Assembly: GCA_023228995.1 (NCBI GenBank)
Contig: JALOAD010000001.1
Span: forward strand, 84,603-148,602
Source of the DNA: Candidatus Muiribacterium halophilum
GTDB taxonomy: Bacteria > Muiribacteriota > Muiribacteriia > Muiribacteriales > Muiribacteriaceae
Length of the DNA: 64,000 nt
Direction of reading: 5' to 3'
Numbering within the stretch: position 1 is the stretch's first letter; each line of letters opens with the position of its first letter. Under the pieces are notes generated by a model, which made no database searches, was not told where the DNA came from, and saw only the letters and a list, made by a program, of their open reading frames with translations. The position numbers and the translations under genes are program-made. Positions 2,447 through 41,074 of the stretch are shown here, one piece after another.

Positions 2447-5400
2447 TTAATTATTAAAATTTGGTTTGTATAAAGGTTCCCATTTAGTTGCATTTAAATC
2501 AAAATCATTTGAGTAAACATTTTCATTAAGTTGCCAACCTGATAAATTTTGATTAAATGCTATAGATTCACAAAACATAAAACTCATATCTGTAACATTT
2601 GAAGTCTTCCAATTTGATATATTTTGATTAAATGTTGTAGCATAAGAAAACATTCCATACATGTTTGTAACTTTTAAAGTATCCCAATTACCTATATCCT
2701 GATTAAATGCACTAGCATAAGAAAACATTAGCTTCATATCTGTAACATTTGAAGTATCCCAACTACTTATATCCTGATTAAATGCTGTTGCATTAAAAAA
2801 CATTCCATACATATTTGTAACTTTTGAAGTATCCCAATTACTTATATCCTGATTAAACACGCTAGCATAATCAAACATATAATACATATTACATTTTTCA
2901 CCAAAACCTTTATCCCACTTTAAAGAAACTCCACCATTATTAAATACACTTGCATTAGAAAACATAGAATTCATATTTATAACATTTGAAGTATCCCAAC
3001 TTCCTATATCCTGATTAAATGCTTTAGCATAACTAAACATACTAGTCATATCACAATTTTCACCAAAACCTTTATTCCAATTTAAAGAAACTCCATCATT
3101 ATTAAATACACTTGATTTATAAAACATTTTTTCAAAATTTTTAACTTTTGAAGTATCCCAACTTCCTATATCCTGATTAAATGCTATAGATTCACAAAAC
3201 ATAAAACTCATATCTGTAACATTTGAAGTATCCCAACTTCCTATATTCTGATTAAATGATCCTGTACTTTGAAACATTCGACTCATATTTATAACATTAG
3301 AAGTATCCCAATTACTTATATCCTGATTAAATACTGTAGCATAATAGAACATAAGACTCATATCTGTAACATTTGAAGTATTCCATACTGATAAATCCTG
3401 ATTAAATGCTTTAGCATGACCAAACATACCAGTCATATCACAATTTTCACCAAAACCTTTATTCCAATTTAAAGAAACTCCATCATTATTAAATACACTT
3501 GATTTATAAAACATTTTTTCAAAATTTTTAACTTTTGAAGTATCCCAACTTCCTATATCCTGATTAAATGCTATAGATTCACAAAACATAAAACTCATAT
3601 TTATAACATTAGAAGTATCCCAACTACTTATATCCTGATTAAATTTTTCAGCACAATAAAACATATAAGATAAATTCTCAACTGTTTTAGGAATGCTATT
3701 TGGTAATTTTTTAAAAAATATATAACTATCATCATTAAATGAACTCAAACAACCTTCAAGAGAATTTAAACCAATATCTCCAAATGAAATTATTTCAACA
3801 AGATAATTATGCCAAGGTGCATTTCCTGTTAGAGATTTTAATTCATCAGAAGTAAAGCCTAAATGATCAGCTTTGCCATATATTTTTACAGTATACTCAT
3901 TTATTGAAGTATAATTATGAGATGGTTGATCTATCTTTATATTCTCAATTTCACTACCATCACCCCAATCTATAAATACATTTAAATTACCTTTAAGAGG
4001 AATTACTAAAGCATCATTTGAATTTACTTTAAATTTTATTTCAAGAAGTTTTCCCCATTGAGCATATAATATTGTATCTTGAGTTATATTAAAAATAGTC
4101 CCTGGTAAATAAAATATTCCATTTCCATCACTTGATGTATTCCAAGCAAAAAATTCGTAATCTGTTTTTGTTAAATCTCCTTTCCCTGCTACTGAAACTT
4201 CTGGATTATAATCAGCGGAATTTACTAATGGTATTGTTCCACCTGTATTATCATTTCCATTATAAGTTAAATTATATTGTTTTATTTCAAAATCCGCTGT
4301 TATAATCACTTCTTTTGTTGGCATTGTGTAATTATAAGGATTTGAAGTTGATATAACTTTTTCACCAACTTTCCATTCTTTGAATTTATAATTTGTATTT
4401 GCTTCTGCTTTTATTTCTACTATCTGACCTTGAGAATAAAGTCCATTATTTGTTAATATTTTTCCATTATCGCCTGAATTAAAGGTTATTAAATATGTTT
4501 TATCCGATATAACAGTATTTTCAGTTATATTGTTAAAATATGTTGTTAATTCGGTCTTATCTGAAGAATTTAAAGTAGAAGTTACCTTTGTTATAATTGC
4601 ATTTTTATCTTTAATATCTACAAAATTATCAGTAATATAACATGCAATTCCAAGTTTTAATATTTTCTTAGTATTTTCAGTTTTGTTAATATTATCTATT
4701 GATGTATTAAGAGCATCTATTGTATTTCCAGTAATATTCTCAATATTTGTATTATTTACTGATACAACCGAACTTAATAAATTAATAATATCAAATTTAG
4801 GTTCATCAGTTGGAATTAACTCTTGAAGTTTTTCAAATTTTTCAACACTTAATAATGATTTAACATTATTTGCAAGAGGTTTTAAGATTTTTGTTATATT
4901 TGCAGTATTAATATCATCTTTATTTATTGCAGATTTTTCAAGCAATTCAATTAATCCATTAACTGCTATAGCTGATTGTAACCTTTTAATATGTTCAATA
5001 TTTAATTTTTCATTATCTTCAGGAAGAAATACCATTGGATTTGATAATATATCAGAAGAAGTAATTTTTATTTCAGCAGAAAAATCAAAAGCTTCATTCA
5101 GGATTATTGCAACTTCTTCTTTTGATAAATTATATTTAGAAACAAGAGTTGTTAATGGCGATAATACCACTCTTCCACTTATATCATTTTGTTCTGCAAT
5201 ACATTCAAGCAAAGGACCTGAATAATTTATACCATTATGTTTACCCTTAAATTCAGCATGCATTTTTATTTTTTGACCAATAATAATTTCGGTTGAAAAG
5301 TTAAATTCACCCTTATCATCAGAAATATCAGATATTATTTCATTAGTATCAATTATTCCATTATTATTAGAATCTATAAAAAACTTTGCACCAATAATAT

Positions 5401-5536
5401 ATGGATCAACCGCAACACCTGTTTTTGATAAAACCTTAGAATTATTAGTAACTCCACCACTACTTCCACCACATCCAATTAAAACCACAATTAACAATAA
5501 AGAAAATAATAATATTAGTTTGTTTTTATACAACAT
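2447..5536 (-). CDS. Large surface lipoprotein (lipobox LIGCGGSSGG). The N-terminal half has Listeria-Bacteroides-type repeat domains; the C-terminal half has more than 15 DUF285-type repeats (FNQDIxxWDTSNVTxMxxMF).
   Basis: Signal peptide + Cys lipobox. Reiterated ~26-aa FNQDI(S/G)xWDTSxVxxMxxMF units match the DUF285 (Mycoplasma/Listeria lipoprotein) repeat signature. YNLTYNGNDNTGG...FFAWNT and ITFNSGDNG...FKEWKVG segments resemble the Flg_new/InlB B-repeat. Confidence 0.8.
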   Translation of the reverse strand: MLYKNKLILLFSLLLIVVLIGCGGSSGGVTNNSKVLSKTGVAVDPYIIGAKFFIDSNNNGIIDTNEIISDISDDKGEFNFSTEIIIGQKIKMHAEFKGKHNGINYSGPLLECIAEQNDISGRVVLSPLTTLVSKYNLSKEEVAIILNEAFDFSAEIKITSSDILSNPMVFLPEDNEKLNIEHIKRLQSAIAVNGLIELLEKSAINKDDINTANITKILKPLANNVKSLLSVEKFEKLQELIPTDEPKFDIINLLSSVVSVNNTNIENITGNTIDALNTSIDNINKTENTKKILKLGIACYITDNFVDIKDKNAIITKVTSTLNSSDKTELTTYFNNITENTVISDKTYLITFNSGDNGKILTNNGLYSQGQIVEIKAEANTNYKFKEWKVGEKVISTSNPYNYTMPTKEVIITADFEIKQYNLTYNGNDNTGGTIPLVNSADYNPEVSVAGKGDLTKTDYEFFAWNTSSDGNGIFYLPGTIFNITQDTILYAQWGKLLEIKFKVNSNDALVIPLKGNLNVFIDWGDGSEIENIKIDQPSHNYTSINEYTVKIYGKADHLGFTSDELKSLTGNAPWHNYLVEIISFGDIGLNSLEGCLSSFNDDSYIFFKKLPNSIPKTVENLSYMFYCAEKFNQDISSWDTSNVINMSFMFCESIAFNQDIGSWDTSKVKNFEKMFYKSSVFNNDGVSLNWNKGFGENCDMTGMFGHAKAFNQDLSVWNTSNVTDMSLMFYYATVFNQDISNWDTSNVINMSRMFQSTGSFNQNIGSWDTSNVTDMSFMFCESIAFNQDIGSWDTSKVKNFEKMFYKSSVFNNDGVSLNWNKGFGENCDMTSMFSYAKAFNQDIGSWDTSNVINMNSMFSNASVFNNGGVSLKWDKGFGEKCNMYYMFDYASVFNQDISNWDTSKVTNMYGMFFNATAFNQDISSWDTSNVTDMKLMFSYASAFNQDIGNWDTLKVTNMYGMFSYATTFNQNISNWKTSNVTDMSFMFCESIAFNQNLSGWQLNENVYSNDFDLNATKWEPLYKPNFNN

Positions 5537-5709: not shown

Positions 5710-7068
5710 ATGTTATTATTTGCTATATATAATAATAGCAAACGAGGAAATCTGATGGAACAAGCTTTCTGGGTAATACTAACTTTATCCTCTGTAATAT
5801 CAATTCTAATATGTATTATATTTATATATTTTTACAATAAATTCAAGAAAACTTTCTTCTTAGAACTTGCTTTAGCATCATTTTTGTATGCTATACATAT
5901 ACCGGTAATAAATTTAATAACATCAATGACAAAACAAAGTTTAATAGGAATATTATCAGATAAAATCCTATTAATTTCAGCTTCTTATCTCTTCGTACAC
6001 GCAATATCAAAATTAACTGAAATAAAATTTTACAAAATAATACATTCTATATTCATTTTTGTTTTTTTCCTTGTTATAACACTTGAAATTTATTGCAATG
6101 AAATTTTCATTAAAGGTTCAGCTGGATTAATAATTTTTGCAACAGCATTTATTTATTGCGGAATACTTTTTTTTAGGAATAAAACTTTTATACGACATAA
6201 TCGAATTATACTCGGAAGTCTTTTTGTTATATGGGGATTAATACCATTTTTATATATACCTTATTATCTTAATGATAAACTTCCATTAATTCCTGTAATG
6301 CTTATTTTTACTGTTAAATTATTAATAAATTTTTTTATAATAATATTATTTTTTGAAGAAAGTAGAAAAGAAGTACTTATTAAAAATTTTGAAATTACAT
6401 CTTTGGAAAATACTAAAAAACAAATTCTATCAACAATAACACATGATATAAAATCTCCTCTTACATCATTAAGCGGTTATTGTGAACTTATAGTATCTGA
6501 AAAACTTGGAACTCTTACAAAAGAACAAAAAGAAAAAATATTAATAATGAAAAAAAATATCGATAAAATCAATTCAATTACTGATAGAATATCTTTTTAC
6601 TCAAAACTCACACGTTTTGAAAAAATCAATCAAGTTGAAAAAATATCAATAAAAAAACTTCTTTTTGATATTTCTGTTTATATTAGAAAAATAAACCCAG
6701 GAATATCAATCAATTTTGAATTTCCTGAAGATGAACTTATAATTCAAGTTGATTTCACCAAATTATCTGAACTTTTTTATATTTTAACCGATATAATGAC
6801 TAATTTTGAAAATAATCCATCAATTAATATATTATTTATAAGTTATCAAGATAAAGACAAAAACTATATTTTTGAAAATAAATTTTATTACAAAGAAAAA
6901 ATACAAAAAAATGAAATACTAAACATAACAGATGAGCAAAAGACATTTGGTGCTAATTTAATAAACAAAATATTTACTGATATTAATGCAAATATGAATT
7001 TAGATATAAAAGAAAATGAAAATTGTCTTATTATAAAAATAAAATTATTAGGATTTCCCCTTGATTGA
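5710..7068 (+). CDS. Polytopic membrane sensor histidine-kinase-like protein with a degenerate ATP-binding domain
   Basis: About 6-7 N-terminal hydrophobic helices, then a HisKA-like H-box (ILSTITHDIKSPLTSLSGYCELI). The C-terminal region has an N-box-like LTDIMTNFENN but lacks clear G1/G2 (DxGxG/GxGxG) motifs. Confidence 0.55.
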   Translation: MLLFAIYNNSKRGNLMEQAFWVILTLSSVISILICIIFIYFYNKFKKTFFLELALASFLYAIHIPVINLITSMTKQSLIGILSDKILLISASYLFVHAISKLTEIKFYKIIHSIFIFVFFLVITLEIYCNEIFIKGSAGLIIFATAFIYCGILFFRNKTFIRHNRIILGSLFVIWGLIPFLYIPYYLNDKLPLIPVMLIFTVKLLINFFIIILFFEESRKEVLIKNFEITSLENTKKQILSTITHDIKSPLTSLSGYCELIVSEKLGTLTKEQKEKILIMKKNIDKINSITDRISFYSKLTRFEKINQVEKISIKKLLFDISVYIRKINPGISINFEFPEDELIIQVDFTKLSELFYILTDIMTNFENNPSINILFISYQDKDKNYIFENKFYYKEKIQKNEILNITDEQKTFGANLINKIFTDINANMNLDIKENENCLIIKIKLLGFPLD

Positions 7069-8025
7069 ATCGATTATCGAATAATATTCATCATATTCAT
7101 CAACCCATATAACTTTTACACCAAGCTCGTTCAAAACACTTTCCTTAAGATAGTCATTAAGATATAAAAGACTTTTAATATCTTGATTATGAATATTTTT
7201 ATCATAAGAATGTTTTTGAACAGTATAATTAACAACACCTTGAAAATTAAGCTGAACAATTTCAAGAATTCTTCTTAAATTAGCATCATTAAAAGAAGTT
7301 CCAACAAAAAAAGAACCTGAATCCTTAAAACTAGTAAGCTGAACAATATTAGACCACGAAAACATTTCGGAAGAAGATTGTCTATTATAATCATCATCTG
7401 AAAAAACAATATTCATATTATCAAAATCTTTAATATGCTGAGGAAGATAACCATGAACATGATAAATTGGAAGAGAACTCTCTAAAAATTCAACATTACT
7501 ATCAAAAATACTCTTATGTTCAACATTATATTTATTAAGTTTTCTTTCAAGAAGATCATCAAAATTATAAGATATAACAGATTTTATATAATTAAACCTT
7601 GTAGGAACACAAAGCCGACCAATAGAACTAATAAGAGGGTTTTTCATAAAAACTTCTTTTGAATACAAAGCTCTTTCAATAGCTTCAAAAAAAGCTTCTG
7701 GACTACCAAATCCACTTTTTATATATCTAGCCTGTAAAATAAGCTCATCAGTTTTAAGTTTAAGGCTTTCCCAATCAGGCAAATCCATAACAACTTTATT
7801 AAGCACAAGGTCATTATAAAGAGCTTTAACAAGATCAGGCCACAAAGGAAGACCCGCAGCTTTTGAAACACCAGAACCCAGAACTAAAGTAAGTCTATTT
7901 GAATTATAAATTTTACGAATATCATAAATAAACTTATCTCGGTTTTTGTCCCAAGTTGTAAAACACTCTGTTAAGTCAAATGCACTAATTTTATTCATTC
8001 TATTATTATACCATTTATCAAGCAT
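7048..8025 (-). CDS. Stand-alone SIR2-like domain protein (SIR2_2 / defence-type sirtuin-like, predicted NAD+-consuming effector)
   Basis: 325 aa. Rossmann motif LVLGSGVSKAAGLPLWPDL (GxGxS..GlPxW), SYNFDDLLE (the TTNYDxLLE motif of SIR2_2) and YHVHGYL (HG motif). Same motif set as ThsA/DSR-type SIR2 domains. Last gene of the 12272->7048 operon. Confidence 0.7.
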   Translation of the reverse strand: MLDKWYNNRMNKISAFDLTECFTTWDKNRDKFIYDIRKIYNSNRLTLVLGSGVSKAAGLPLWPDLVKALYNDLVLNKVVMDLPDWESLKLKTDELILQARYIKSGFGSPEAFFEAIERALYSKEVFMKNPLISSIGRLCVPTRFNYIKSVISYNFDDLLERKLNKYNVEHKSIFDSNVEFLESSLPIYHVHGYLPQHIKDFDNMNIVFSDDDYNRQSSSEMFSWSNIVQLTSFKDSGSFFVGTSFNDANLRRILEIVQLNFQGVVNYTVQKHSYDKNIHNQDIKSLLYLNDYLKESVLNELGVKVIWVDEYDEYYSIIDSIKGKS

Positions 8026-8116
8026 AAAAACAATAGAATCCCGTGAATTGAGGTCAAACCCGCAGAGGCTGTTGATTTATTCAGAATCATGCAGGGATGA
8101 CAAAAATAAAGATAGT

Positions 8117-8524
8117 TTAAAGATTTAACTCAATATTATTCAATCCGTTTTCATAAAATTCATCCATATATTTTTTAAATATATTTTTGAATTCATCTAC
8201 CTGATCAGAATTCATCTTGTCTGAAAAATAAAGATTGTGTTTGTTTATTATATCTCTTTCAGATAATCTTCGTCCAAGTTGTTCCCAAAATATATTATCA
8301 ACAAACTTTTCTTTGAAATCTTTTATTTCCAATAGTGTATTGAGTTCATCTTGTCTTGATCTAAAGCCTTTTTCTTCAAGAGCTTTAATTACTTTTAATT
8401 CCAGTTCTTTTAAATTATCATCTTTCTCAAACACTGTAAGACATGGCTCATTAAATTTTTCATTACCAAGATGTATTAATTTTAAAAGTAGTTTATATTC
8501 TTTTTCTGACAAGTTTAGTGCCAT
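8117..8524 (-). CDS. Small predicted all-helical hypothetical protein (135 aa)
   Basis: Open frame overlapping the upstream gene by 32 nt (translational coupling). Lys/Glu-rich helical composition, no recognised motif. Confidence 0.5.
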   Translation of the reverse strand: MALNLSEKEYKLLLKLIHLGNEKFNEPCLTVFEKDDNLKELELKVIKALEEKGFRSRQDELNTLLEIKDFKEKFVDNIFWEQLGRRLSERDIINKHNLYFSDKMNSDQVDEFKNIFKKYMDEFYENGLNNIELNL

Positions 8525-8873
8525 GTTTTATCTTCCTCTCTTTTCTTGCAAAAAATACATCACCCGGAACCCAACCTCTTTCTCCAATAGCATTTTTACA
8601 ATAATACCACGAAGATGATTTTTCAAGAATTGCTAATTTTTCTCCAGTTTTAATATCAAGTTCTCCTGAATAATAATCTTTTTTTATTTTAACATGAAAA
8701 TCTTCGCCAAATTCAATATAATCAATAGGTACCCATGCTCTTTTACCGTTTTCTTTAACACACCATCTAAATCCTGGCCAAGGAGATTTCTTTTTTGTAT
8801 ATATACAAATCTCATCTTGCTCGTAAAAAATATTTTCATCTGTTGACTTTCTATAGTCTTTTAATGCTATCAT
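8493..8873 (-). CDS. Small cytoplasmic protein with two tandem SH3-like domains (126 aa)
   Basis: Two consecutive segments fit the SH3 pattern (ALxDY...E.xF..GD.I.....WW....GxxGxVPxxYV): ALKDYRKSTDENIFYEQDEICIY...WPGFRWCVKENGKRAWVPIDYIE and KIKKDYYSGELDIKTGEKLAILEKSSSWYYCKNAIGERGWVPGDVF. It starts 4 nt after the STAND gene stop. Confidence 0.55.
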   Translation of the reverse strand: MIALKDYRKSTDENIFYEQDEICIYTKKKSPWPGFRWCVKENGKRAWVPIDYIEFGEDFHVKIKKDYYSGELDIKTGEKLAILEKSSSWYYCKNAIGERGWVPGDVFFARKERKIKHGTKLVRKRI

Positions 8874-8877
8874 TCTT

Positions 8878-11439
8878 CTACTCCATTATAATACAATAAT
8901 CATTTTTTAATTCAAACATATATGTTTTAGTCTTTCTGGAATTTACAAGTGTATCCATAAATATCTTCCTAAGACTGTGTACACTTACTCTTAGAAGATT
9001 CAAGTCTGACAAATCTTCAAGTTTTCTTCCCCATACTTTTTCATAAATTTCATCTGAATTTAATTCTTTTCCTATATTAACACAAAAAAGTTTTAAAAGT
9101 TTTAATAATATGGTCTTTTTAAAAATATCATGTTTTTTTCCAAATACTAAAATTTCTTGATTAATAAAATCAATATAAATGTTATATTTCTCTTTTTTAC
9201 TGCTATATTCTTTCATTTCATAATATTCAATTTTTCTTTTAACACCGTTTACATTAATTTCAAAAAAACTACCACTTTGGTTTTTTTCAACAATAAATCT
9301 CAATCTATTTATTTCTCTAACTATAATAACAGAATTATAAAATGATAATCCTTGAATTATATTATTAATATCCTTGTTTTCTATCATATTTACTATTGAT
9401 TCAGCAAATACTTTCATATATTCCCAATCAGAAATATTTAAACTTTCTATTTCATTTTTTAAATTAATTTTATCTTTATCAATAATATATTTTAACACGA
9501 TATAATCTAAAAAAAACAAGTTATAAAATATGTAATAATTATTTTCTTTAAAAAATTTTAAGCTTTGCTCTATTTTAATATAAGCTTTGTAATAATCGTT
9601 TTTTAAAATATATATATGACCTAGTAATGCACTGTAAAAACCGTTTGTATTTTCCAATTCAAGAAATTTATCACCTGTTATTCCAAAAATTGATTTTTTT
9701 TCAAAAATTTTAATATATAAAATAACATATACAATTCTCTTATTAATAGTCTTTGCTTTATCATAATCTGCATAATATAAAAATTGTCTATAATACTCAT
9801 AAGCTTTCATTTTTGATCTTTTTGATAATTCAACAAGCGATAAATTAAAATATATATCTGATAATTTTTGTTTGTCATAATATGGATATTTTTCAATTAT
9901 ATCATTTAATACAAAATGACATTTATCATGTTCCATGAGATATAAATAACATTCACCCATTAATGCTTTTAAATTAATAAGTAATTTAAGCGAAACATTT
10001 TCACTTGATTTATCAATAAAATCTTTAAGATTTATTATACAGCTTTGAAGTAAACATAATTCTCTTTCTTTAAAAATTGTAATATATTGTATAATTATTT
10101 TTTCAGGTTTCGTTAAATTATCTGTTTTTAATTGTTCTTTAAATGAATTATTCAAATAAAAGGAATTTACTTTCAATAATAAATCTCTTTTTTTAGAATC
10201 ACATAATCTTTCTACATTTTCAATAAAAATATTTTTCTTTTCTTTTGTTAAAGCTTGTATCCACATATTATAATAATAAATTTCATCGTTAAATTCGCAA
10301 AGATATTCAATGTTTTCTTCAAGAAAAATATTCAAGTCAATATTATTTACAAAATCTATTGGAAAATTTTCAAAAGCATTTTTTATATATAAACAACATT
10401 TAAAATAATCTTCCGATGATTTAGAAAAAGTTATATATTCAAAAAAATTATCGACTGAAAATATATATTTTTCTTCGTAAAATTCAAGTATTTTTTTAGA
10501 TGTTTTTGTTATAATTTTTTTATCTGAATTATTAAGAATTGATATTTTCATCATATCTGAACATTTAATATTATTATCAATATCTTGTTCAATTACAAAA
10601 TGATTTTTTAAAAAATTTATATCATCTTCTTTAATATTAAAAAAATCAATAAAGTTTTTTTTATTTACTGCTATATTAAAAAAAGATAATAAAAACGTTA
10701 TTTCCTTCCTTTTTTGTGTAAGACCTTCATAATCAAGATAATTAATTTCTTTATTTATTGCATTAAGAAATGCATTTCCTTCAAATATATCATTTATTGA
10801 AAAATCATAACTTGTAAAAAGTGATATAAAAACTTTAATATATAAAGGAATTCCACCTGTTTTTTTATAAATTTTATTAAGCCAAAAAGAAGATATTTTT
10901 TTGTTATTTTGTCCTATAGAAATTTTTTCAACAAGTTTTACAAACTCAATATAATCAAGTTTTTTAACATTATAATGATAAATATCACTTTTTACACTTA
11001 AAGGAATTTCGATAAATTGTGAAGATAAAACAATAAGTTTTGAATTGTAAAAAATATCAAAAGCTTCTCTTATAAACTCTGAATGATCAATAAGACAAAA
11101 ATTGAAATTATCAAGTAAAATATAATTATTGTTTTTTTCTAAATATTCCAGAAATTCTCGAATATTGGCATTTTGATTGATTTTTAAATTATATTTAGTA
11201 TTTAGTAAATTGATTAATTCTTTAAAATCCATATTTCTTGTTACTTTAGCATATAATATTTTATTGTTTTTTCTATCAATATTAATATTTTCTAGAGCTT
11301 TTATAATAAAAGAAGTTTTACCAACTCCACGCATTCCATATATAAAAAAAATTGAAAAATCGTTGAATTTGTTTTTTAATCTTTCAATTTCATCTTTTCT
11401 ACCAGTAAAATTAACTAATTTTGAAAATTCTCTTTTCAT
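8878..11439 (-). CDS. STAND-type P-loop NTPase (AAA_16-like, helical/TPR-like middle) with a C-terminal OmpR/PhoB-type winged-helix DNA-binding domain
   Basis: 853 aa. FTGRKDEIERL + Walker A GMRGVGKTSF + Walker B-like YILLDNFNF in the first 120 aa. A long helical repeat region follows. The C-terminus (DIFKKTILLKLLKLF..GKELNSDEIYEKVWG....LLRVSVHSLRKIF) aligns with the Trans_reg_C motif (EF.LL.LL....G.V.sRe.L...VWG.......rtVdVHIrRLRKKL). Confidence 0.75.
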   Translation of the reverse strand: MKREFSKLVNFTGRKDEIERLKNKFNDFSIFFIYGMRGVGKTSFIIKALENINIDRKNNKILYAKVTRNMDFKELINLLNTKYNLKINQNANIREFLEYLEKNNNYILLDNFNFCLIDHSEFIREAFDIFYNSKLIVLSSQFIEIPLSVKSDIYHYNVKKLDYIEFVKLVEKISIGQNNKKISSFWLNKIYKKTGGIPLYIKVFISLFTSYDFSINDIFEGNAFLNAINKEINYLDYEGLTQKRKEITFLLSFFNIAVNKKNFIDFFNIKEDDINFLKNHFVIEQDIDNNIKCSDMMKISILNNSDKKIITKTSKKILEFYEEKYIFSVDNFFEYITFSKSSEDYFKCCLYIKNAFENFPIDFVNNIDLNIFLEENIEYLCEFNDEIYYYNMWIQALTKEKKNIFIENVERLCDSKKRDLLLKVNSFYLNNSFKEQLKTDNLTKPEKIIIQYITIFKERELCLLQSCIINLKDFIDKSSENVSLKLLINLKALMGECYLYLMEHDKCHFVLNDIIEKYPYYDKQKLSDIYFNLSLVELSKRSKMKAYEYYRQFLYYADYDKAKTINKRIVYVILYIKIFEKKSIFGITGDKFLELENTNGFYSALLGHIYILKNDYYKAYIKIEQSLKFFKENNYYIFYNLFFLDYIVLKYIIDKDKINLKNEIESLNISDWEYMKVFAESIVNMIENKDINNIIQGLSFYNSVIIVREINRLRFIVEKNQSGSFFEINVNGVKRKIEYYEMKEYSSKKEKYNIYIDFINQEILVFGKKHDIFKKTILLKLLKLFCVNIGKELNSDEIYEKVWGRKLEDLSDLNLLRVSVHSLRKIFMDTLVNSRKTKTYMFELKNDYCIIME

Positions 11440-12227
11440 TTTTTTTCCTTAAAACATTGTGATAAGATTTTAAATGCTTTACTTGGACAAGCAATAATAT
11501 CTTTTTTAAGCGGTTTTCCATTTAAAATATCATAATCAAAAAATAAATCTTCTCCATCTATATATTTCACACAAAGACCTGAAGCATAACAAATACTAAC
11601 AGCGCCTAAAATATCCCATATTTTAACTTTACCACAATGAGCAGCAAGTACACTTGATTTTGCAGCAAAAACAAGATGAAGAGCAGTCGAACCAAAAGAT
11701 CTTAATTTACCTGGAAATTTTATTGAAATATTTCTCATACTTTTGGAATCAATACATATAGAATCTGTTTTACAAAGATCTTCACGGTTAAAGACACAGG
11801 AATTAATTTCAGAATAATTAAGAAATGCACCAAAATCAGGTCCACCATAATAAAGTTCATCAAATATTGGAGAATATATAAGTCCAAAATAAGGTTTTTT
11901 ATCTTTCAGAAGTCCAATACTTATGCACCAGCCAGGAAGTTTCATTGCATAAGAATGAGTGCCATCGATTGGATCGACAGCCCATATAAATTCAGATTCT
12001 AAATTCAAATTATTATTATTACCTTCTTCACCTATAACAATTCCTTCAAATTCCTCTTCTAATTTACTTTTTATAAATATTTCAATTTCCTTATCAGCAA
12101 TTGTTACATGAGAACCATCTGGTTTTAAATCGTATCCAGTAAATGGATTTTTATAATATCTTAAAGCAATTTCACCTGCTTGTTTTATTATTTCTACAGT
12201 TTTTGTAATTAATTTTTCATTTTCCAT
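11436..12227 (-). CDS. Inositol-monophosphatase (FIG/IMPase) family phosphatase (SuhB/CysQ-like)
   Basis: Motifs IGEEG, WAVDPIDGTHSY (WxxDPxDGT) and KIWDILGAVSI (WDxxA). The ORF track begins at a TTG at 12272, but that TTGACT looks like a -35 box. The ATG at 12227 (MENEKL) has a GAGGA SD. Stop overlaps the STAND start (ATGA). Confidence 0.8.
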   Translation of the reverse strand: MENEKLITKTVEIIKQAGEIALRYYKNPFTGYDLKPDGSHVTIADKEIEIFIKSKLEEEFEGIVIGEEGNNNNLNLESEFIWAVDPIDGTHSYAMKLPGWCISIGLLKDKKPYFGLIYSPIFDELYYGGPDFGAFLNYSEINSCVFNREDLCKTDSICIDSKSMRNISIKFPGKLRSFGSTALHLVFAAKSSVLAAHCGKVKIWDILGAVSICYASGLCVKYIDGEDLFFDYDILNGKPLKKDIIACPSKAFKILSQCFKEKK

Positions 12228-16054: not shown

Positions 16055-19045
16055 TTAATAACTAACTCTTACAACAGTAAATTCTCCAACTCCACCTTCA
16101 TAATTCTCAGTTACAAATATTATTTTGCGATTAACTTCATCTCTTATAGTATTTGTTACAGAATCAGCCGAATTAGGATCTAAAGATTTGGAAAATTCAG
16201 TGCCGAGCTTTATTATAGGAAATCCAGCTTGATCTGGAATTAAAAACACATAGTTTTTTCCATCTGCTTGCATAATAGAATACATCTGATTATCAGTAAG
16301 ACTTGTAATATCATTTATTATATTATTTTCTAAATCAAGTAAATTAACAGAATCGCCATAATTTTCTTCGAATATTAAAAATCCATTATTGTTTTCATCT
16401 TCAAAATATTTAAGCTGATTAAACTGATTACATGTAAGATTGTTAAAACTATTTTCAATAACTTTTGAAGGTGTTTGCCATACACCATTATCAAGCTCAG
16501 AAAACCATATATGATCAAGTTCATTCTGATCTCTTGCAGAAAAATATATTTTTTCAACATTAGATAAATTTTTATAATAAAATGCAAAACCCGATTCTCT
16601 AATATCTATATCAGAAAGATTCTCAGTCGGAGTTGAATATACTTCCACTGTATCACTAAATGAATTTCCATCAAATGTATTATATATAAGCGAGTGTTTA
16701 TTACTATCCCATTCTGCTTTTACAAAAATTTGATGAAAAACACCATCTTTATAAATAGCACTTGGCACTGGAGAATAAGTATAATTAAAATCAGTATAAT
16801 TTGTAAAATTATTACTATTATAATTAAAGAATACAGTTCTATAACCCAAAGAAGGATTCGTTCCATTAGGAGATTCAAATACTAAGTAAGCTCCCAAAGA
16901 ATTATAGAAAATATCATGAAAGCAATTAATATCTTCACCAGGAGAAACTGTATAAATAATCTCAGTACCATCTGCCAAACAAGCTACAATGTCACATGAA
17001 CTATTCATATAAAATATTATAACATCTCCCGAATTATCAAGAGCAATTTTTATTTGTGAAGAAACATCAGCCAAAGTTATTTCTTCAAAAGTAATATTAT
17101 TTATATTTATTGAATAAGATTCACTAATATCATTTTCAAATCTATTATAAGCTTTAAATGAAAGATCGCATGAATAATCAAACTCTAATGGATAAACATT
17201 TCTTGTATCATAAAAATATGAATAATGACCTGGTTTAAGATTAATTAATCCTTCAGTTAACGGTGCATATTGTGCAGGTTCATAAACGCTTATATCAACT
17301 GAAACTGTATCATATAAAACATCAAAGCTAAATTGTATAATCCTAGAATCATTTAATTGAGTAAAATTCGCTATTTGTGAAGTTCTATTATCTATGCTGA
17401 AAGTTTGAGATTCAACAAATGCTAAAGGGTTTTCAGAAGGTGTAATTTTTATTTTAATTTCAGATATAGTTTCTGCTACTTCATTAAAACTTTCCCACAT
17501 TACTGTATATGTTCCAGGAGAAAGATTTGTAATATTATCAGAAGAATTCAAAGTTATAGCCTGATATTCTTGATTATTAATTTTAGCTTCTAATAAAACT
17601 GAAGTTCTTTTATATAAAACAGTAAAAGCTATAGGAATATCAAATCTATTATGATTAACATTTAATTGCGTTATAATCGGAATTATTTCTCCACCAGTGT
17701 TTACAACTACTCCAGTCAAATTTTCAAGTATTGTATAATCTGTAATATTAGGATTATTTTGAAGATCAATCCTTTTTAAATTAGGCATATCAAGCAACAC
17801 AGATAAATCTGATATATTAGTATTTGATAAAGATAAATTTTCAAGATTTGAAAGTCCTGCTAGAGATGTTATATCTGATATTCCATTTCCAGATAGATTT
17901 AGCGAATTTATAGTTGAAAGATTTGCTAAAGATGTTATATCAGATATTTTATTTCCAGACAAATTTAAAGCTTTAACTGATGTTAAAGCTGAAAGTGCTG
18001 AAATATCTGAAATATCATTATTTGAAAGATCAATGTTTTCAAGATTTTTACAAAATTCAAGCCCATTAAGACTTATTAAAGAAGTTTGGTTAGCTTTATT
18101 TGGTGCTGTTTTGGATGGACCAGGTAATGGTCCAGTTCCAGAATATGCTAGTGATATAAACTCAGCATGTGAAAGAAGTTCATCTGTAAGATAATCTTCA
18201 GATAGTACAGAAACTCCGTTAATTGTATTTAAAGTTTCTATAACTTTATTTCGTAAATTAGGATCTGTAAAATAATAAGTTTTTGTGTTGATTTCACTTA
18301 ATAAAACCCTATCATTTGTATCATTTTGATAAACATCGATTTTATAATCTTTGCCATTATCAAGATCAGTTAATACATAAATAATATTTTCAATAGTTCC
18401 GGAATAAGTAAAATTATAAGTATCAAACAAAATATTATTAACTTCAATATCATAATTGGTTGAAAATGAAGGTGATTGCCATGCAATACCAATACTATTT
18501 GAACTTTTTTCAAAAACTTCAGGAGTTTTATTTAAAGGAATTTCAATTTCCCATGAATTATATGAAATACTAACATAAGTAGTGTTATTATCGATTATTT
18601 TTATTTGTTCATTATAGTAAAATGGTATTGCATCATTTGAATTAATTGGTATAAAAAAGAAAAAATAATCTCCAGCAGCTATTTCCCCAATATTAACTCC
18701 ATTCTCATGTGGACTACCCGGTTTTACATCATATGTTTTAAAAAAAACATCATCTCTTTTACTTAAAATATCTGCAATTATAAGATTACTATGTTCTGAA
18801 GTAACTAAATCACTTACTGCATTATATACACCTAATGGAGCAAGAATAACTTCTATAGTATTAATTCCAAGATGTCTTGGTGGAGCTTTACGGTTTGTAC
18901 TATTTACAGGCCATTCAACATTAACATTAAGAGAATTTCCTGTGAATTTAGGACTTATATCAACACTGCGATTGCTACCGCATCCAGCAATAAAAAGCAT
19001 AAAAACAACCAAAATGCTTAAAGAAAAAATATATTTTTTACACAT
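16055..19045 (-). CDS. Large surface lipoprotein with leucine-rich repeats (internalin-like) and Ig/FN3-like domains
   Basis: Lipobox FIAGCGS. 22-aa LRR units (LSNNDISDISALSALTSVKALNLSGNKISDITSLANLSTINSLNLSGNGISDITSLAGLSNLENLSLSNTNISDLS). Confidence 0.8.
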   Translation of the reverse strand: MCKKYIFSLSILVVFMLFIAGCGSNRSVDISPKFTGNSLNVNVEWPVNSTNRKAPPRHLGINTIEVILAPLGVYNAVSDLVTSEHSNLIIADILSKRDDVFFKTYDVKPGSPHENGVNIGEIAAGDYFFFFIPINSNDAIPFYYNEQIKIIDNNTTYVSISYNSWEIEIPLNKTPEVFEKSSNSIGIAWQSPSFSTNYDIEVNNILFDTYNFTYSGTIENIIYVLTDLDNGKDYKIDVYQNDTNDRVLLSEINTKTYYFTDPNLRNKVIETLNTINGVSVLSEDYLTDELLSHAEFISLAYSGTGPLPGPSKTAPNKANQTSLISLNGLEFCKNLENIDLSNNDISDISALSALTSVKALNLSGNKISDITSLANLSTINSLNLSGNGISDITSLAGLSNLENLSLSNTNISDLSVLLDMPNLKRIDLQNNPNITDYTILENLTGVVVNTGGEIIPIITQLNVNHNRFDIPIAFTVLYKRTSVLLEAKINNQEYQAITLNSSDNITNLSPGTYTVMWESFNEVAETISEIKIKITPSENPLAFVESQTFSIDNRTSQIANFTQLNDSRIIQFSFDVLYDTVSVDISVYEPAQYAPLTEGLINLKPGHYSYFYDTRNVYPLEFDYSCDLSFKAYNRFENDISESYSININNITFEEITLADVSSQIKIALDNSGDVIIFYMNSSCDIVACLADGTEIIYTVSPGEDINCFHDIFYNSLGAYLVFESPNGTNPSLGYRTVFFNYNSNNFTNYTDFNYTYSPVPSAIYKDGVFHQIFVKAEWDSNKHSLIYNTFDGNSFSDTVEVYSTPTENLSDIDIRESGFAFYYKNLSNVEKIYFSARDQNELDHIWFSELDNGVWQTPSKVIENSFNNLTCNQFNQLKYFEDENNNGFLIFEENYGDSVNLLDLENNIINDITSLTDNQMYSIMQADGKNYVFLIPDQAGFPIIKLGTEFSKSLDPNSADSVTNTIRDEVNRKIIFVTENYEGGVGEFTVVRVSY

Positions 19046-36664: not shown

Positions 36665-39600
36665 TCAAAACAATTGTTGATTTTCTAATTTTTCTGTTCT
36701 AAATATTGATTTTTCAAGATTTTCATCCAAAGATATATTTTCAGAGTTTTTTATTTGTCTATCAATTTTCAAATATTCATCTTTTTCAAAAGTGCTTTTT
36801 TTAATTTTAAGCATATAAATTAGATTAAAACAGTTAAATATTGAATTTTGTTTAAGATCAGATAAACATATAAGCTGAGTATTAAATTTTTTGGCAATTT
36901 CAAATAAAGGAATAAGAAGATGTTGACTTGATATTGGACCGAATGGATTGTCCATTATAAGTATTCTTGAATCTTTTCCTGCTAAATTCTCAGAATTATT
37001 TATCATAGTATTATTTCTTATATATGCCATTAAAGCTGATATAACTGCAAAAAATACTACAAATTTTTCACCACCAGAATTTTCACTTATTGCACTTTCC
37101 CATTTTTTCCAACGATTATTTGCTGTATTAAGATCAATTTTATAAACACTTACTGGAATTGAATTTCTTCCTGAATACTGATTTATCAATTCTCTTGTAG
37201 ACATTAATCTAAAAATACTTTTATTTATTTTTTCGTTTTCATAATTTTGTCTTTTTTCTTCTCTAATATTTTGTATACAAGAATCAATATATTTTTCTAT
37301 TCTTTTTTTAGCATTTTCTTCATTATCAATATCTGTGTTTATCTTTATCATCTGAATTGGTCTGATTTTTTCTGATAATTTCACAGAAGATGATAATGCT
37401 ATTTTACCAAGTTCTTCAAATACTCTTTGAGCATGCACAAAACATTGAAATACAACATCATTTCTATTTTTTTCAACATTTTCAAGTCTTATTCTATTTA
37501 TTTCTATTAATTCACTTATTTTTATTATATAATCTTTTAATCTTTCAAAAAGATAATAATATTCATTGTATTTTTTATTTTTCCTTTCAATCATACTATC
37601 AATTGAAGTAAAAAGATTATCTATATTTTGATTTTTATGTTTAAATTCAGATCTTAATAATGAATAATTACCAATAAGCTGTTTTTCTTCATTATCCATT
37701 TGTTCTTTAAACAATTTATAATTACTTTCAAGATTTTTATAAATTATTTCAATGTTATCTTTTATATCAAATTCAATTATAGAGCTTGAAGGTAAATTTA
37801 AAATATCAATTCTTTGTTTAATTTTTTTAAATTCAGCAATTTCTTTTCTTAACTTTTTTTCAAGTAATATGTAATCTTTGCGATTTGAATTAATTGTATT
37901 TTTTCTTGCAATAAAATCTTGTTTGATATTTTCTCTTGGACAAGCTTTATCATAATCTAATCTTTCAATTTCCTTAAAAGCTTGTTCTTTCCCTCTATTT
38001 TCAGAACTTATATCTTTATCAACTATATTATAATCAGATATAATAGAATTTAGTTTATTATTTTGTAAATAGATATCAATTTCTGTTTTTTCTTCAATTT
38101 CTATGTTATATTCAATGTTATTCACTTCTTCTTCGTTAAATTTAAATCTTGAAAGTTCTTTTGTAAATTCTGATATTTCATTAATTGATTTTTCTTTTAA
38201 GATTATTAATGCTGAAAAATCTTTTGAATATTCTTTTTTCAAATTCTCATATATACTTAAAAGTTCTTCAATATTTTCTTTGAGTATTTCAGATTTTTCT
38301 TGAGCATTTGAGAATTTTAATTTATATTTTTCACATTCTGTTAATTTATTTTTTATAATTTCAATATTTTTATTTAATCCTGAAATTTCATTATTTATTT
38401 TTATAATTTCATTTTCATTTAATAAAATATCTTTATTGAGTTTTTCTATTGTTTTTTGAAGATTTTTTCTTTTTTCTAATATTCTGACATATTCTGAATC
38501 TTTCACTATAAATTCATTGAAATCATGTAATTTGACATTTAATAAATTGAGTTTATTTTGTTTTTCATTTAATTTATTTATATTATTCCTGATATTTATT
38601 TCTGCATTTTTATTTTCATTATTTAAAATTTCAATTTTTTTTTCTATTTCATTAGTTTTTTGTAATAAATCTCTTTCATTTTTTTCAGCTTGATATAAAA
38701 AATCCTCTTTATAATCAAATTCTTGAAGAATTCTAAAATCATTTGATGCAATATTATAAGAATTAGCAATATCCTTATATATATTTTCAAGAGATTTTTT
38801 TTCATTTTCTTTTTCATTAAGAAATTTTTCAGTTTTATCAATTTCAAATATTCGTTTTTCAACATTAACAATAAAATTCAAATCTTCATTGATTTTAATA
38901 AATACATTATTGTTTTCAAAATCAACATTTGTATTTTCATAAAAAAATAAAGGAATTGAACTTTTAATAAATTTATCTTTAAATACATCTTTAACTTTAT
39001 TAATTTGATCTTTTTTTAATATAATTGAATAAGCAAGAAGAGGATTTTTTTCAAGTAAAGAATTTCTATTATCTTTTTTTTGATTTTTAATAAAATTCTC
39101 ACCAGTTTCAAATTCAATATTATTATTAATCAAAATATCAATTATATTTTGATCTATATGAAGAGAATTTTGTTTAATTCCTTTAATAATATTTTCAATT
39201 AATTTTATATCAGAAGAAAGTTCTTTTTTTCTATTATCATAATCAATAAGAATATTTTTAAATTCAAATTCAATATGTTTTTTATCAAAAATTCTTTGTT
39301 TTTTTAATTCATATTTTTTTAATATTTCATAAGATTTATCTCTTTTATCTGTGAATAATGCAATTTCATCTATTTTTTTTTGATAAAGTAAAATATTATC
39401 TCTAACTTTATTAGAAAAGTCTTTGATTAAATCAGAATTATTTTGCAATTTATTTTCTAATTTTAAATTTTGCTCATTTATTTGTAAAATCTCATTATTA
39501 TGATTTGCAATTTTATTTTCAATTTCACTTATAAATAAATTAAACTCATCTATATCAATCTGCCCAAGAATATTTCTTAATATTTTAACATTATTATTTT

Positions 39601-41074
39601 TTTCAAAATCCAATTGATATTTTTCAAATATAATAGCTTTTTCATTTACAGAACCAAGACTAATATTAGAAGAATTAATTGTTTTTTTAAATTCTTTTTG
39701 TTTAATTAAAATTTCTTCAAGATTTTGCTTTGAAATTTGTTTATTATTTTCAATATTTTTATATTGATTTTGTAAATTTACAATTCTTTCATCAAACTTT
39801 ATTTTTAGAGAATATTCAATATGAGATAATCTTTCTTGTATATTGGAATTTTTTTCAAGACTTAAAATTTTTTCATTATAACCTTTTAAATCATTTTCAC
39901 AATTGATTTTTTTATCATAAATCTTTTTAAATCGAAGTTTTTCAAGAAATATATTAAGTTTTTTTATATTATCTTTTAAAATATTAATCTTTTCTAATAA
40001 TGTGATTTTTCTTTTTTCCAAAATTTCAAGCTTATCAACAGAATTATAATAATCAAGACTTCTTTCTTCATAATCAATATTTTTAAGAGAATATTCAGCT
40101 TGAATTAAAAATTTAGAAATATCATTTTCCTCTTTTTCAAGTTGTTCTATTTTATCACTTAAAATATTTTCAATATATTTAATTTTCTTTTCAGTATTTT
40201 CTTTATTTTCAATAATTGCAGTAAAAATCTCAATATCTTTTGAAAAATCCTCAAGTTTTTCTGAAAAATTCTGCAAAAGCTCTTTTTCAATAAGAAATTC
40301 CTCATTTCTAATTATTTCATCAACAAGATTAGACATCATTTGTCCAAGATGCCCAGCTTGATTTTTATCTTTATAGAAAACCTTTAATATTGTTTTATTT
40401 AAAAACCATTCATTAATCAATTGATCTGAATTTTTACATTTTTGAAAAATCTCATCAAGACCACCTTCACTATCATTTATACCAATGATTATATTTTTCC
40501 ATTCATCCTGAGAAATTCCATATTCAGATAAATGCTCTCTATATTCTTCCATATTTTCCTGAGAAAATATCCTAAAATCCATTGAAGATTTTTTAGCTCT
40601 TTCATCAGCAAATTCTCTAGCTTTTTTATAATTCATAACATTAATAACATTTCCTTTCCTAGCAGAAAAACCAATATTACTAATATCATAAGAATTTGAC
40701 TGTGAATATTTTGATGTAAACATAAAAAATCTAAGCCTTGAGTTTTTTTCTCCATCCATTCCATGAAACTCATGATTTTCACAAACAATACCTGTTAAAA
40801 GATAATCAGAAGAATAATCAAGTTTCCATTCTATCATTATAAAACAAGGTAATTTAGAAGTTTTAAAAAAATCAGCAAATTTTCTACCTTGAATCTTTGC
40901 CCCAGGTACAATTGGTTGAAGCATAACTTGAACAAGAACACTCTTTCCTCCACCATTTGCAAGACTTAAAAGAGCATTTTCACCTTTATAAAAATCAAAC
41001 ATTTCATCAGTAATATGTCTTGTAAAATTATTATATGAAAAATTAAGAACTCTTATTCGATTGATTTTAGGCAT
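36665..41074 (-). CDS. jetC: Wadjet JetC / MksB-like SMC-family ABC ATPase (1469 aa)
   Basis: N-terminal Walker A LANGGGKSVLVQV. Very long coiled-coil middle. C-terminal signature NSGGEKF and Walker B ILIMDNPFG. Last gene of the jetDABC operon. Confidence 0.75.
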   Translation of the reverse strand: MPKINRIRVLNFSYNNFTRHITDEMFDFYKGENALLSLANGGGKSVLVQVMLQPIVPGAKIQGRKFADFFKTSKLPCFIMIEWKLDYSSDYLLTGIVCENHEFHGMDGEKNSRLRFFMFTSKYSQSNSYDISNIGFSARKGNVINVMNYKKAREFADERAKKSSMDFRIFSQENMEEYREHLSEYGISQDEWKNIIIGINDSEGGLDEIFQKCKNSDQLINEWFLNKTILKVFYKDKNQAGHLGQMMSNLVDEIIRNEEFLIEKELLQNFSEKLEDFSKDIEIFTAIIENKENTEKKIKYIENILSDKIEQLEKEENDISKFLIQAEYSLKNIDYEERSLDYYNSVDKLEILEKRKITLLEKINILKDNIKKLNIFLEKLRFKKIYDKKINCENDLKGYNEKILSLEKNSNIQERLSHIEYSLKIKFDERIVNLQNQYKNIENNKQISKQNLEEILIKQKEFKKTINSSNISLGSVNEKAIIFEKYQLDFEKNNNVKILRNILGQIDIDEFNLFISEIENKIANHNNEILQINEQNLKLENKLQNNSDLIKDFSNKVRDNILLYQKKIDEIALFTDKRDKSYEILKKYELKKQRIFDKKHIEFEFKNILIDYDNRKKELSSDIKLIENIIKGIKQNSLHIDQNIIDILINNNIEFETGENFIKNQKKDNRNSLLEKNPLLAYSIILKKDQINKVKDVFKDKFIKSSIPLFFYENTNVDFENNNVFIKINEDLNFIVNVEKRIFEIDKTEKFLNEKENEKKSLENIYKDIANSYNIASNDFRILQEFDYKEDFLYQAEKNERDLLQKTNEIEKKIEILNNENKNAEINIRNNINKLNEKQNKLNLLNVKLHDFNEFIVKDSEYVRILEKRKNLQKTIEKLNKDILLNENEIIKINNEISGLNKNIEIIKNKLTECEKYKLKFSNAQEKSEILKENIEELLSIYENLKKEYSKDFSALIILKEKSINEISEFTKELSRFKFNEEEVNNIEYNIEIEEKTEIDIYLQNNKLNSIISDYNIVDKDISSENRGKEQAFKEIERLDYDKACPRENIKQDFIARKNTINSNRKDYILLEKKLRKEIAEFKKIKQRIDILNLPSSSIIEFDIKDNIEIIYKNLESNYKLFKEQMDNEEKQLIGNYSLLRSEFKHKNQNIDNLFTSIDSMIERKNKKYNEYYYLFERLKDYIIKISELIEINRIRLENVEKNRNDVVFQCFVHAQRVFEELGKIALSSSVKLSEKIRPIQMIKINTDIDNEENAKKRIEKYIDSCIQNIREEKRQNYENEKINKSIFRLMSTRELINQYSGRNSIPVSVYKIDLNTANNRWKKWESAISENSGGEKFVVFFAVISALMAYIRNNTMINNSENLAGKDSRILIMDNPFGPISSQHLLIPLFEIAKKFNTQLICLSDLKQNSIFNCFNLIYMLKIKKSTFEKDEYLKIDRQIKNSENISLDENLEKSIFRTEKLENQQLF

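Follow-up and report, generated by a model that had tools for sequence, protein, structure and literature searches.

STAND (NLR-like) regulators are known from a few well-studied paradigms, namely MalT, AfsR and the SARPs, GutR, and PH0952. Here we describe a STAND protein with an OmpR/PhoB-type winged helix at its C-terminus. It is encoded in the window, by which we mean the whole stretch of 64,000 nucleotides that was analyzed (Candidatus Muiribacterium halophilum, contig JALOAD010000001.1, forward-strand positions 84,603 to 148,602). The protein is 100% identical, over the same length, to a metagenome-assembled genome (MAG) protein that NCBI lists as [quoted passage not shown]. Judged by analogy with the described systems, it is probably (we estimate a probability of about 0.6) a MalT-like signal-sensing transcription factor with an OmpR/PhoB winged-helix head.

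Effector domains of STAND proteins occur at either protein end (PMC6468293). In the MalT/LAL layout, a NOD module (NBD-HD-WHD) is followed by an arm, a TPR-like sensor, and a C-terminal DNA-binding effector, which in MalT is a helix-turn-helix of the LuxR/GerE type. Binding of inducer and ATP is expected to lead to oligomerization and promoter binding (PMC10936776, PMC6468293). In SARP-NOD-TPR proteins such as AfsR (and, for the SARP part, EmbR and DnrI), an OmpR-type winged helix-turn-helix (wHTH) lies at the N-terminus and is always followed by BTAD, before NOD and TPR (PMC10936776). Transcription by MalT and AfsR is activated by ATP binding, not by hydrolysis, and the NOD and TPR parts inhibit the DNA-binding effector (PMC10936776). 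PH0952 is a predicted transcription factor of NOD-arm-TPR type (PMC6468293), and its wHTH is N-terminal and ArsR-like. In the window protein, the NOD comes first, the helical arm and repeat region second, and the DNA-binding domain last (Table 1).

The identity of the C-terminal domain was borderline when the window protein was considered alone. The Pfam Trans_reg_C model matched residues 779-829 with E=4.4e-5 and 23.9 bits, short of the cut-off of 26.2 bits. NCBIfam gave only sub-threshold matches for the protein, among them RpaB (2e-4), which is likewise OmpR-type. A search of the PDB with the C-terminus as a single sequence was non-significant (SaeR, E=0.53). We therefore rest the assignment on the family.

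When the STAND protein was searched exhaustively with HMMER against 1.84 billion representatives, 76 relatives were identified. Some 45-50 are proteins of 840-990 aa that align to both query ends (~10-320 and ~740-852). The family statistics given below were drawn from a 48-member alignment of full-length relatives. Trans_reg_C matched 46 of these 48 proteins at E<=0.01, with a best value of 1.9e-12. The family profile of the C-terminal 132 residues retrieved 57 PDB sequences at E<=0.01, all of them OmpR/PhoB-family proteins matched via their DNA-binding domain. The matches included SaeR (1.7e-10), PhoB (1.3e-7), and AfsR (1.6e-3), and also RpaA, ToxR, ArlR, and CadC.

The predicted structure pointed the same way. 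The AlphaFold2 (AF2) model of residues 722-853 has a pLDDT of 95.6 and a pTM of 0.88, and shows the OmpR topology, with a beta-platform, three helices, and a wing hairpin. The top 50 PDB entries found by Foldseek with this model were OmpR/PhoB domains throughout, with TM scores up to 0.78 and root-mean-square deviations of about 1.7-2.5 A. RstA, for example, superimposed over 94 residues with a TM score of 0.73 and a deviation of 1.7 A, and the PhoB-DNA complex 1gxp was also matched. Taken together, the family search, the Trans_reg_C counts, the PDB profile matches, and the model outweigh the borderline single match, and settle the OmpR/PhoB identity of the C-terminus. An earlier sequence-only reading of this DNA had proposed an N-terminal STAND NTPase joined to a C-terminal OmpR/PhoB-type wHTH that aligns with Trans_reg_C, and had suggested structure prediction of the C-terminus as a check. 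Pfam, the family profile, the model, and Foldseek all bear out this proposal.

The details of the motifs that had been quoted in its favor need some adjustment. EKVWG (residues 800-804) and LRVSVHSLRKIF (residues 816-827) are present in the window protein. However, the "RxVxVHI" register was off by a few residues, and HMMER aligns VHSLRK with the PhoB-type I-x-R-L-R-K. W803 and R817 are near-invariant across the family alignment. In common with PhoB, KdpE, RstA, SaeR, and RpaA, the domain has the beta-sheet platform, helices a1-a3, the wing, the VW(G) motif, and the LRK motif in a3. Unlike these regulators, the STAND protein has no receiver domain, and control by the STAND NTPase would take the place of phosphorylation. 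The family also differs from them by additions to the wHTH, namely a beta-hairpin and a helix ahead of the domain, and an extra terminal strand of the pattern [FY]-C-[ILV]-I. The cysteine of this strand (C849) is near-invariant, being kept in 42 of the 48 family members.

The STAND class of the N-terminal NTPase is secure from Pfam matches and the predicted fold. NB-ARC matched residues 15-207 (31.3 bits, cut-off 23.5) and nSTAND6 residues 13-81 (31.9 bits, cut-off 27.7). AAA_16, the model that had been proposed as a test of this part, reached 23.4 bits, below its cut-off of 32.6, and Trans_reg_C, proposed alongside it, was significant but sub-cut-off; the NTPase is recognized by NB-ARC and nSTAND6 instead. 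The full-length AF2 model, built on the 48 relatives, has a pLDDT of 80.2, with values above 90 for residues 1-330. Its nearest PDB fold according to Foldseek is P. horikoshii PH0952 (6mfv, 2.7e-13). Further near folds are those of Apaf-1, CED-4, MalT (8bob), the plant resistosome NLRs NRC4 and ZAR1, and the antiviral proteins Avs4 and EfAvs5.

In the model, the region between NOD and wHTH consists of helices only, and confidence is low at residues 384-432 and 560-597. Pfam detected no TPR in the window protein. In the relatives, TPR_12 (44/48) and TPR_MalT (36/48) were found in the aligned regions, as was NB-ARC (40/48). We found no Pfam match to BTAD, GerE (LuxR), or Response_reg in the window protein, and BTAD and GerE were outside the 25 most frequent Pfam families of the 48 relatives.

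How does this layout compare with the described ones? The sequence-only reading had called it the inverse of SARP/AfsR. This is correct insofar as the wHTH lies at the opposite end, at the extreme C-terminus past the sensor, and BTAD was not detected. The two groups share the OmpR-type wHTH, the NB-ARC-type NOD, and TPR as building blocks, the DNA-binding domain of AfsR is found by fold as well as by the family profile, and one distant NTPase relative of the STAND protein (P0056) has the order BTAD-NB-ARC-TPR. Nevertheless, a MalT layout with an OmpR head is the more apt description. The window protein and MalT/LAL have the same order of parts, MalT is among the nearest folds, and TPR_MalT is widespread in the family. 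The differences are that MalT has a LuxR/GerE head in place of the OmpR/PhoB winged helix, that there is no close sequence relationship, and that hydrolysis residues are degenerate in the window copy. From PH0952, the best structural neighbor, the window protein differs by the position and the class of its wHTH. In the searchable literature, combinations of NB-ARC/STAND with OmpR-type yielded only SARP/AfsR papers, and nSTAND6 yielded nothing. The NOD-TPR-C-terminal OmpR/PhoB order is thus not described in the searchable literature, which holds only the N-terminal SARP and C-terminal LuxR layouts. The single parts and the general logic are familiar, and the domains are already annotated in databases.

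The family comprises roughly 50 sequence clusters, chiefly from Muiribacteriota and Wallbacteria. Named members were found in MAGs of Candidatus Wallbacteria, of Muiribacteriota, and of one Cloacimonadota bacterium, and in unclassified bacteria. Other searches recovered little of the family. A word-indexed homolog search with the STAND protein returned the protein itself and one ortholog (locus L001, an ENA contig), a profile search of genome contigs with 12 family sequences found 2 loci, and a metagenome scan found 3 weak loci that matched the NTPase part only. Members currently go by the names "NB-ARC domain-containing", "tetratricopeptide repeat protein", or "hypothetical protein". In UniRef, a member of 904 aa is called "OmpR/PhoB-type domain-containing protein", whereas the NCBI name of others is "winged helix-turn-helix domain-containing protein".

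The gene contexts of the relatives are varied. The Wallbacteria assembly GCA_028687545.1 encodes at least 7 paralogs, two of them adjacent. In a locus of this MAG (L003), a complete pstS-pstC-pstA-pstB-pstB-phoU operon lies between paralogs at 8001-10673 and 16566-18673. PhoB, an OmpR-family response regulator, controls pst-phoU in most bacteria. The paralog pair is a candidate case for a regulon of the family. Other members lie beside genes for oligopeptide-binding proteins (L002), SBP_bac_5 transporter genes, a PAS hybrid kinase (L012), a histidine kinase together with a response regulator of the OmpR type (L014), AP_endonuc_2 and GH57 (L016, another M. halophilum genome), or FG-GAP and small proteins (L015, L017). 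Expansion into paralogs is typical of transcription-factor families. The lineage-specific expansion together with the varied metabolic and signaling contexts suggests a transcription-factor family rather than a defense gene. Distant relatives that share the NTPase only carry N-terminal BTAD, MarR-type wHTH, TIR, Schlafen, or HD-CE domains, suggesting that the NB-ARC-TPR chassis is generic and that the terminal domain sets the output.

By analogy with MalT, AfsR, and PH0952, the protein may work as follows. In the resting state, the NBD would be clamped by the sensor and the arm. Autoinhibition would be released when the helical-repeat region binds a ligand or a partner protein. The NOD with bound nucleotide would then oligomerize and gather several OmpR-type domains, which would bind to repeated sites in the DNA and bring in RNA polymerase.

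Within the family, the window copy is divergent. It retains the lysine of the P-loop and the first aspartate of Walker B. In the Walker A motif, G35, G38, G40, and K41 are each present in at least 46 of the 48 family members, and the column of D110 is D in 44. The second acidic position of Walker B is N111 in the window protein (D in 31/48, N in 14/48), the sensor-1 position is S140 (R in 37/48), and the MHD-like position is S294 (H in 27/48). The GxP motif is kept as G196-I-P198, with I at position 197 versus H in 38 of the relatives. The hydrolysis and switch set of Walker B DD/DE, sensor-1 Arg, and MHD-type His is thus incomplete in the window protein. These losses would bear on activity, not on homology. 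The window copy probably binds nucleotide yet hydrolyzes it poorly, and its switch may therefore depend on partners. As MalT and AfsR need ATP binding only (PMC10936776), the loss of hydrolysis residues would be compatible with a functional switch that is reset differently.

Alternatively, the window copy could be a decaying or non-switching relic, that is, a constitutive DNA-binding protein, a scaffold, or an incipient pseudogene. The substitutions D111N, R140S, and H294S could be read in this way, as could S822 in the recognition helix (R in 40/48), the lack of a TPR match, and the low GC content of the gene. The gene has 19.2% GC in a window that is itself very AT-rich (26% GC). Its third-position GC (GC3) of 0.107 equals that of neighboring genes and the host background, so that the low value reflects amino-acid content and not recent import. 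Recent horizontal acquisition, which we also considered, is accordingly unsupported by GC3. Together with the synteny of the chromosomal backbone with a sister genome, the GC3 value points to a native gene. (The GC minimum of the window lies elsewhere, at 38001-40000, with 16.7% GC and a strong negative AT skew.) The L001 ortholog, moreover, reads in three frames, with shifts at 3040-3060 and 4740-4750. However, each shift occurs within a 9-nt homopolymer of T or A, and the contig is of a long-read style. The shifts are probably sequencing or assembly errors, although the tracts may be slippage-prone, and we rejected a pseudogene as the default interpretation. The window open reading frame (ORF) is intact across 853 codons, both orthologs carry the same substitutions, and their C-terminal domains show 60% conservation. 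The NBD and the wHTH are modeled at pLDDT >90, and N at the second Walker B position is not peculiar to this copy. We therefore regard a relic as improbable.

The STAND gene is part of a block of five genes on one strand, in the order IMPase-like, STAND, SH3x2, p135, SIR2 (Table 1). The whole block is conserved in L001. Read directly in the sequence, the stop codon of the IMPase-like gene overlaps the STAND start (ATGA), and the two genes are assigned to one transcription unit. The SH3x2 gene starts 4 nt past the STAND stop codon. Upstream of the block, the predicted promoter and the terminator before it are conserved in L001. Rfam detected no RNA family in the window.

Table 1. Features of the STAND gene, its protein, and the surrounding block. 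Residue numbers refer to the STAND protein.
Feature	Coordinates	Strand	Evidence
STAND gene, 853 aa	8878..11439	-	Intact ORF with ATG start (ORF list and translation)
NOD module (NBD-HD-WHD), residues ~9-303	10531..11415	-	Pfam NB-ARC and nSTAND6; AF2 model
Walker A/P-loop GMRGVGKT, residues 35-42	11314..11337	-	Family alignment
Walker B YILLDNF, residues 106-112	11104..11124	-	D110 kept; second acidic position is N111
Helical arm and degenerate TPR-like sensor, residues ~307-722	9274..10521	-	All-helical in AF2 model
OmpR/PhoB-type winged-helix domain, residues ~751-853	8881..9189	-	Pfam, PDB profile search, AF2 model, Foldseek
IMPase-like (inositol-monophosphatase-family) gene, upstream	11436..12227	-	Pfam Inositol_P 1.6e-35
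SH3x2 gene, 126 aa, two canonical eukaryote-type SH3 domains	8493..8873	-	Pfam SH3_2 and SH3_1 above cut-off
p135 gene, 135 aa, no known family	8117..8524	-	Overlaps SH3x2 gene by 32 nt
SIR2_2-family gene, stand-alone SIR2 domain, 325 aa	7048..8025	-	Pfam SIR2_2 1e-12
Terminator of preceding S8 peptidase gene	12302-12275	-	Consensus scan; conserved in L001
Sigma-70-like promoter TTGACT-17-TAGTAT, predicted	12272-12244	-	Consensus scan; conserved in L001

The two small proteins encoded after the STAND gene are rare. In a word-indexed search of 5.8 billion proteins, SH3x2 was found in two copies, one in the window and one in L001 (79% identical). Its best PDB matches are the SH3 domains of NCK1/2 and p47phox, and it is described as cytoplasmic. 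No obvious PxxP ligand for it was seen in the neighboring proteins. For p135, nothing scored above cut-off in Pfam or NCBIfam, no PADLOC or PDB match was found, and the metagenome scan returned no relatives. Conservation of its ortholog in L001 (85% identity) suggests that p135 is probably a real orphan gene. The co-inherited SH3x2 and p135 proteins are candidates for the partners on which the switch of the window copy may depend.

Comparison with a different M. halophilum genome (L007-L009) showed that the block is not a fixed unit. The backbone around it is syntenic between the two genomes (GT2, B12-radical SAM ... HisKA, MetRS). In L007-L009, a SIR2 ortholog (61% identical) follows 80 nt past the IMPase-like gene, and the STAND, SH3x2, and p135 genes between the two are absent. 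We conclude that STAND-SH3x2-p135 behaves as a three-gene indel within a conserved IMPase-SIR2 pair. The SIR2 gene is thus independent of the STAND gene, which weakens a reading of the two as sensor and effector. In the housekeeping backbone of the other genome, the IMPase-like and SIR2_2 genes are directly adjacent at L007 9148-10942, and the pair of a phosphatase and an NAD-consuming SIR2 protein might form an NAD(P)-related module.

Autoregulation or local regulation by the STAND protein is possible. One such explanation is that the STAND-wHTH protein responds to a cue of stress or infection by activating or derepressing either the SIR2 NADase gene or its own operon, a role that would be like that of wHTH regulators that gate other defense operons. 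In agreement with it, the five genes from IMPase-like to SIR2 are co-stranded and overlapping or near-abutting, and the arrangement is the same in L001. The SIR2 gene, whose start NCBI puts at the ATG at position 7998, is preceded by a separate 91-nt spacer, and a regulator could act on a promoter-like site within this spacer. The SIR2 protein matches the PADLOC ThsA-type SIR2 model at 1.1e-14. Only the SIR2 part is covered by the match (profile positions 4-276 of 478). A SLOG domain is lacking, and none of the four genes tested encodes a TIR protein, so that the locus does not qualify as Thoeris. Homologs of the SIR2 protein at 30-36% identity are longer, and at least one adjoins Mrr-like and AAA_15-plus-UvrD-helicase (Gabija-like) genes. 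Against a local regulator, the SIR2 ortholog in L007-L009 does without the STAND, SH3x2, and p135 genes, so a regulator is not required. The spacer upstream of SIR2 differs between the window and L001; conservation is limited to the promoter and the terminator ahead of the IMPase-like gene. On reading the IMPase and SIR2 upstream spacers of both loci, we saw no conserved repeat operator, but no systematic motif search was run. Finally, none of the other family members' loci examined has an SH3 or SIR2 neighbor. We consider a dedicated local regulator of SIR2 unlikely.

A different explanation would make the STAND protein an Avs-like anti-phage sensor that recognizes invading DNA or a phage protein and activates SIR2 post-translationally, with SH3x2 and p135 as adaptors. 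The sequence-only reading had likewise raised a sensor of invading DNA. The NOD chassis has the fold of Avs4 and of EfAvs5, which is a SIR2-STAND protein, and the operon includes a SIR2-family gene. Some distant NTPase relatives bear effector domains of the TIR, Schlafen, or HD-CE type. It is known from NTPase conflict systems that adaptors and effectors can be encoded by separate genes (PMC8195603). The STAND gene also evolves much faster than its neighbors, with 50-60% identity to the L001 ortholog versus 71-89% for the five flanking genes compared. However, the window protein has no fused enzymatic effector, and PADLOC gave no match for STAND, SH3x2, or p135. No relatives were found in a phage collection, and a plasmid collection yielded only two Nostoc NB-ARC proteins, matched in the P-loop region (residues 6-112). 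The locus belongs to a syntenic housekeeping backbone (MetRS, GT2, radical SAM) and not to an island, and the linkage to SIR2 is broken in the sister genome. Moreover, the conserved output of the family appears to be a classical promoter-binding wHTH, and the contexts of the paralogs are metabolic or signaling and not defense-related. These results argue against a sensor of invading DNA, and we hold an Avs-like role to be very unlikely.

A more elaborate proposal combines elements of both. STAND-wHTH, SH3x2, and p135 would be a new sensing module inserted between the IMPase-like and SIR2 NADase genes, creating a multi-gene NAD-depletion system for defense or stress. The OmpR domain of a hydrolysis-dead NLR-like protein could bind foreign or damaged DNA or fire the SIR2 promoter, and the SH3 adaptor could replace the nucleotide switch. 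We give this proposal a very slim chance of being correct.

The interpretation as a MalT-like transcription factor with an OmpR/PhoB head also has observations against it. The analysis brought to light neither a DNA target nor a repeat operator or regulon. Catalytic and switch residues of the window protein, and S822 as well, deviate from the family pattern, and the protein may be inactive as a switch, in part or altogether. TPR models do not recognize its sensor region any more. That the STAND gene evolves fastest within the block would also be compatible with a role in conflict or with relaxed constraint, and the SIR2-family gene that apparently shares its operon has distant relatives in defense islands.

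Beyond the block, we made some further observations on the window. A 452-aa ORF at 5710-7068 on the forward strand, with multiple predicted membrane segments and HisKA, overlaps the 3' end of the convergent SIR2 gene by 21 nt. HATPase_c was not matched in this ORF at E<=1, whereas the L007 counterpart has HATPase_c. The window also encodes a 1029-aa lipoprotein with six DUF285 repeat stretches and Listeria-Bacteroides repeats (2447-5536, reverse strand) and a 996-aa LRR protein (16055-19045, reverse strand). Judged by its gene table, the syntenic part of the sister genome covered by L007 has no counterparts of these two genes, suggesting variable surface-protein insertions in this backbone.

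The STAND-OmpR family does not open a new category of system. It adds the combination of NOD, TPR, and C-terminal OmpR/PhoB domain, and indicates that an OmpR-type head can be driven from either end of the STAND chassis. A practical use lies in the annotation of members that are now inconsistently named. Studies of how NOD oligomerization places OmpR-type domains on DNA could also use the family for comparison. It has expanded in barely studied candidate phyla, the Muiribacteriota and Wallbacteria, and an appreciable part of the signal-responsive transcription there may depend on it, for example through the paralogs that flank pst-phoU.

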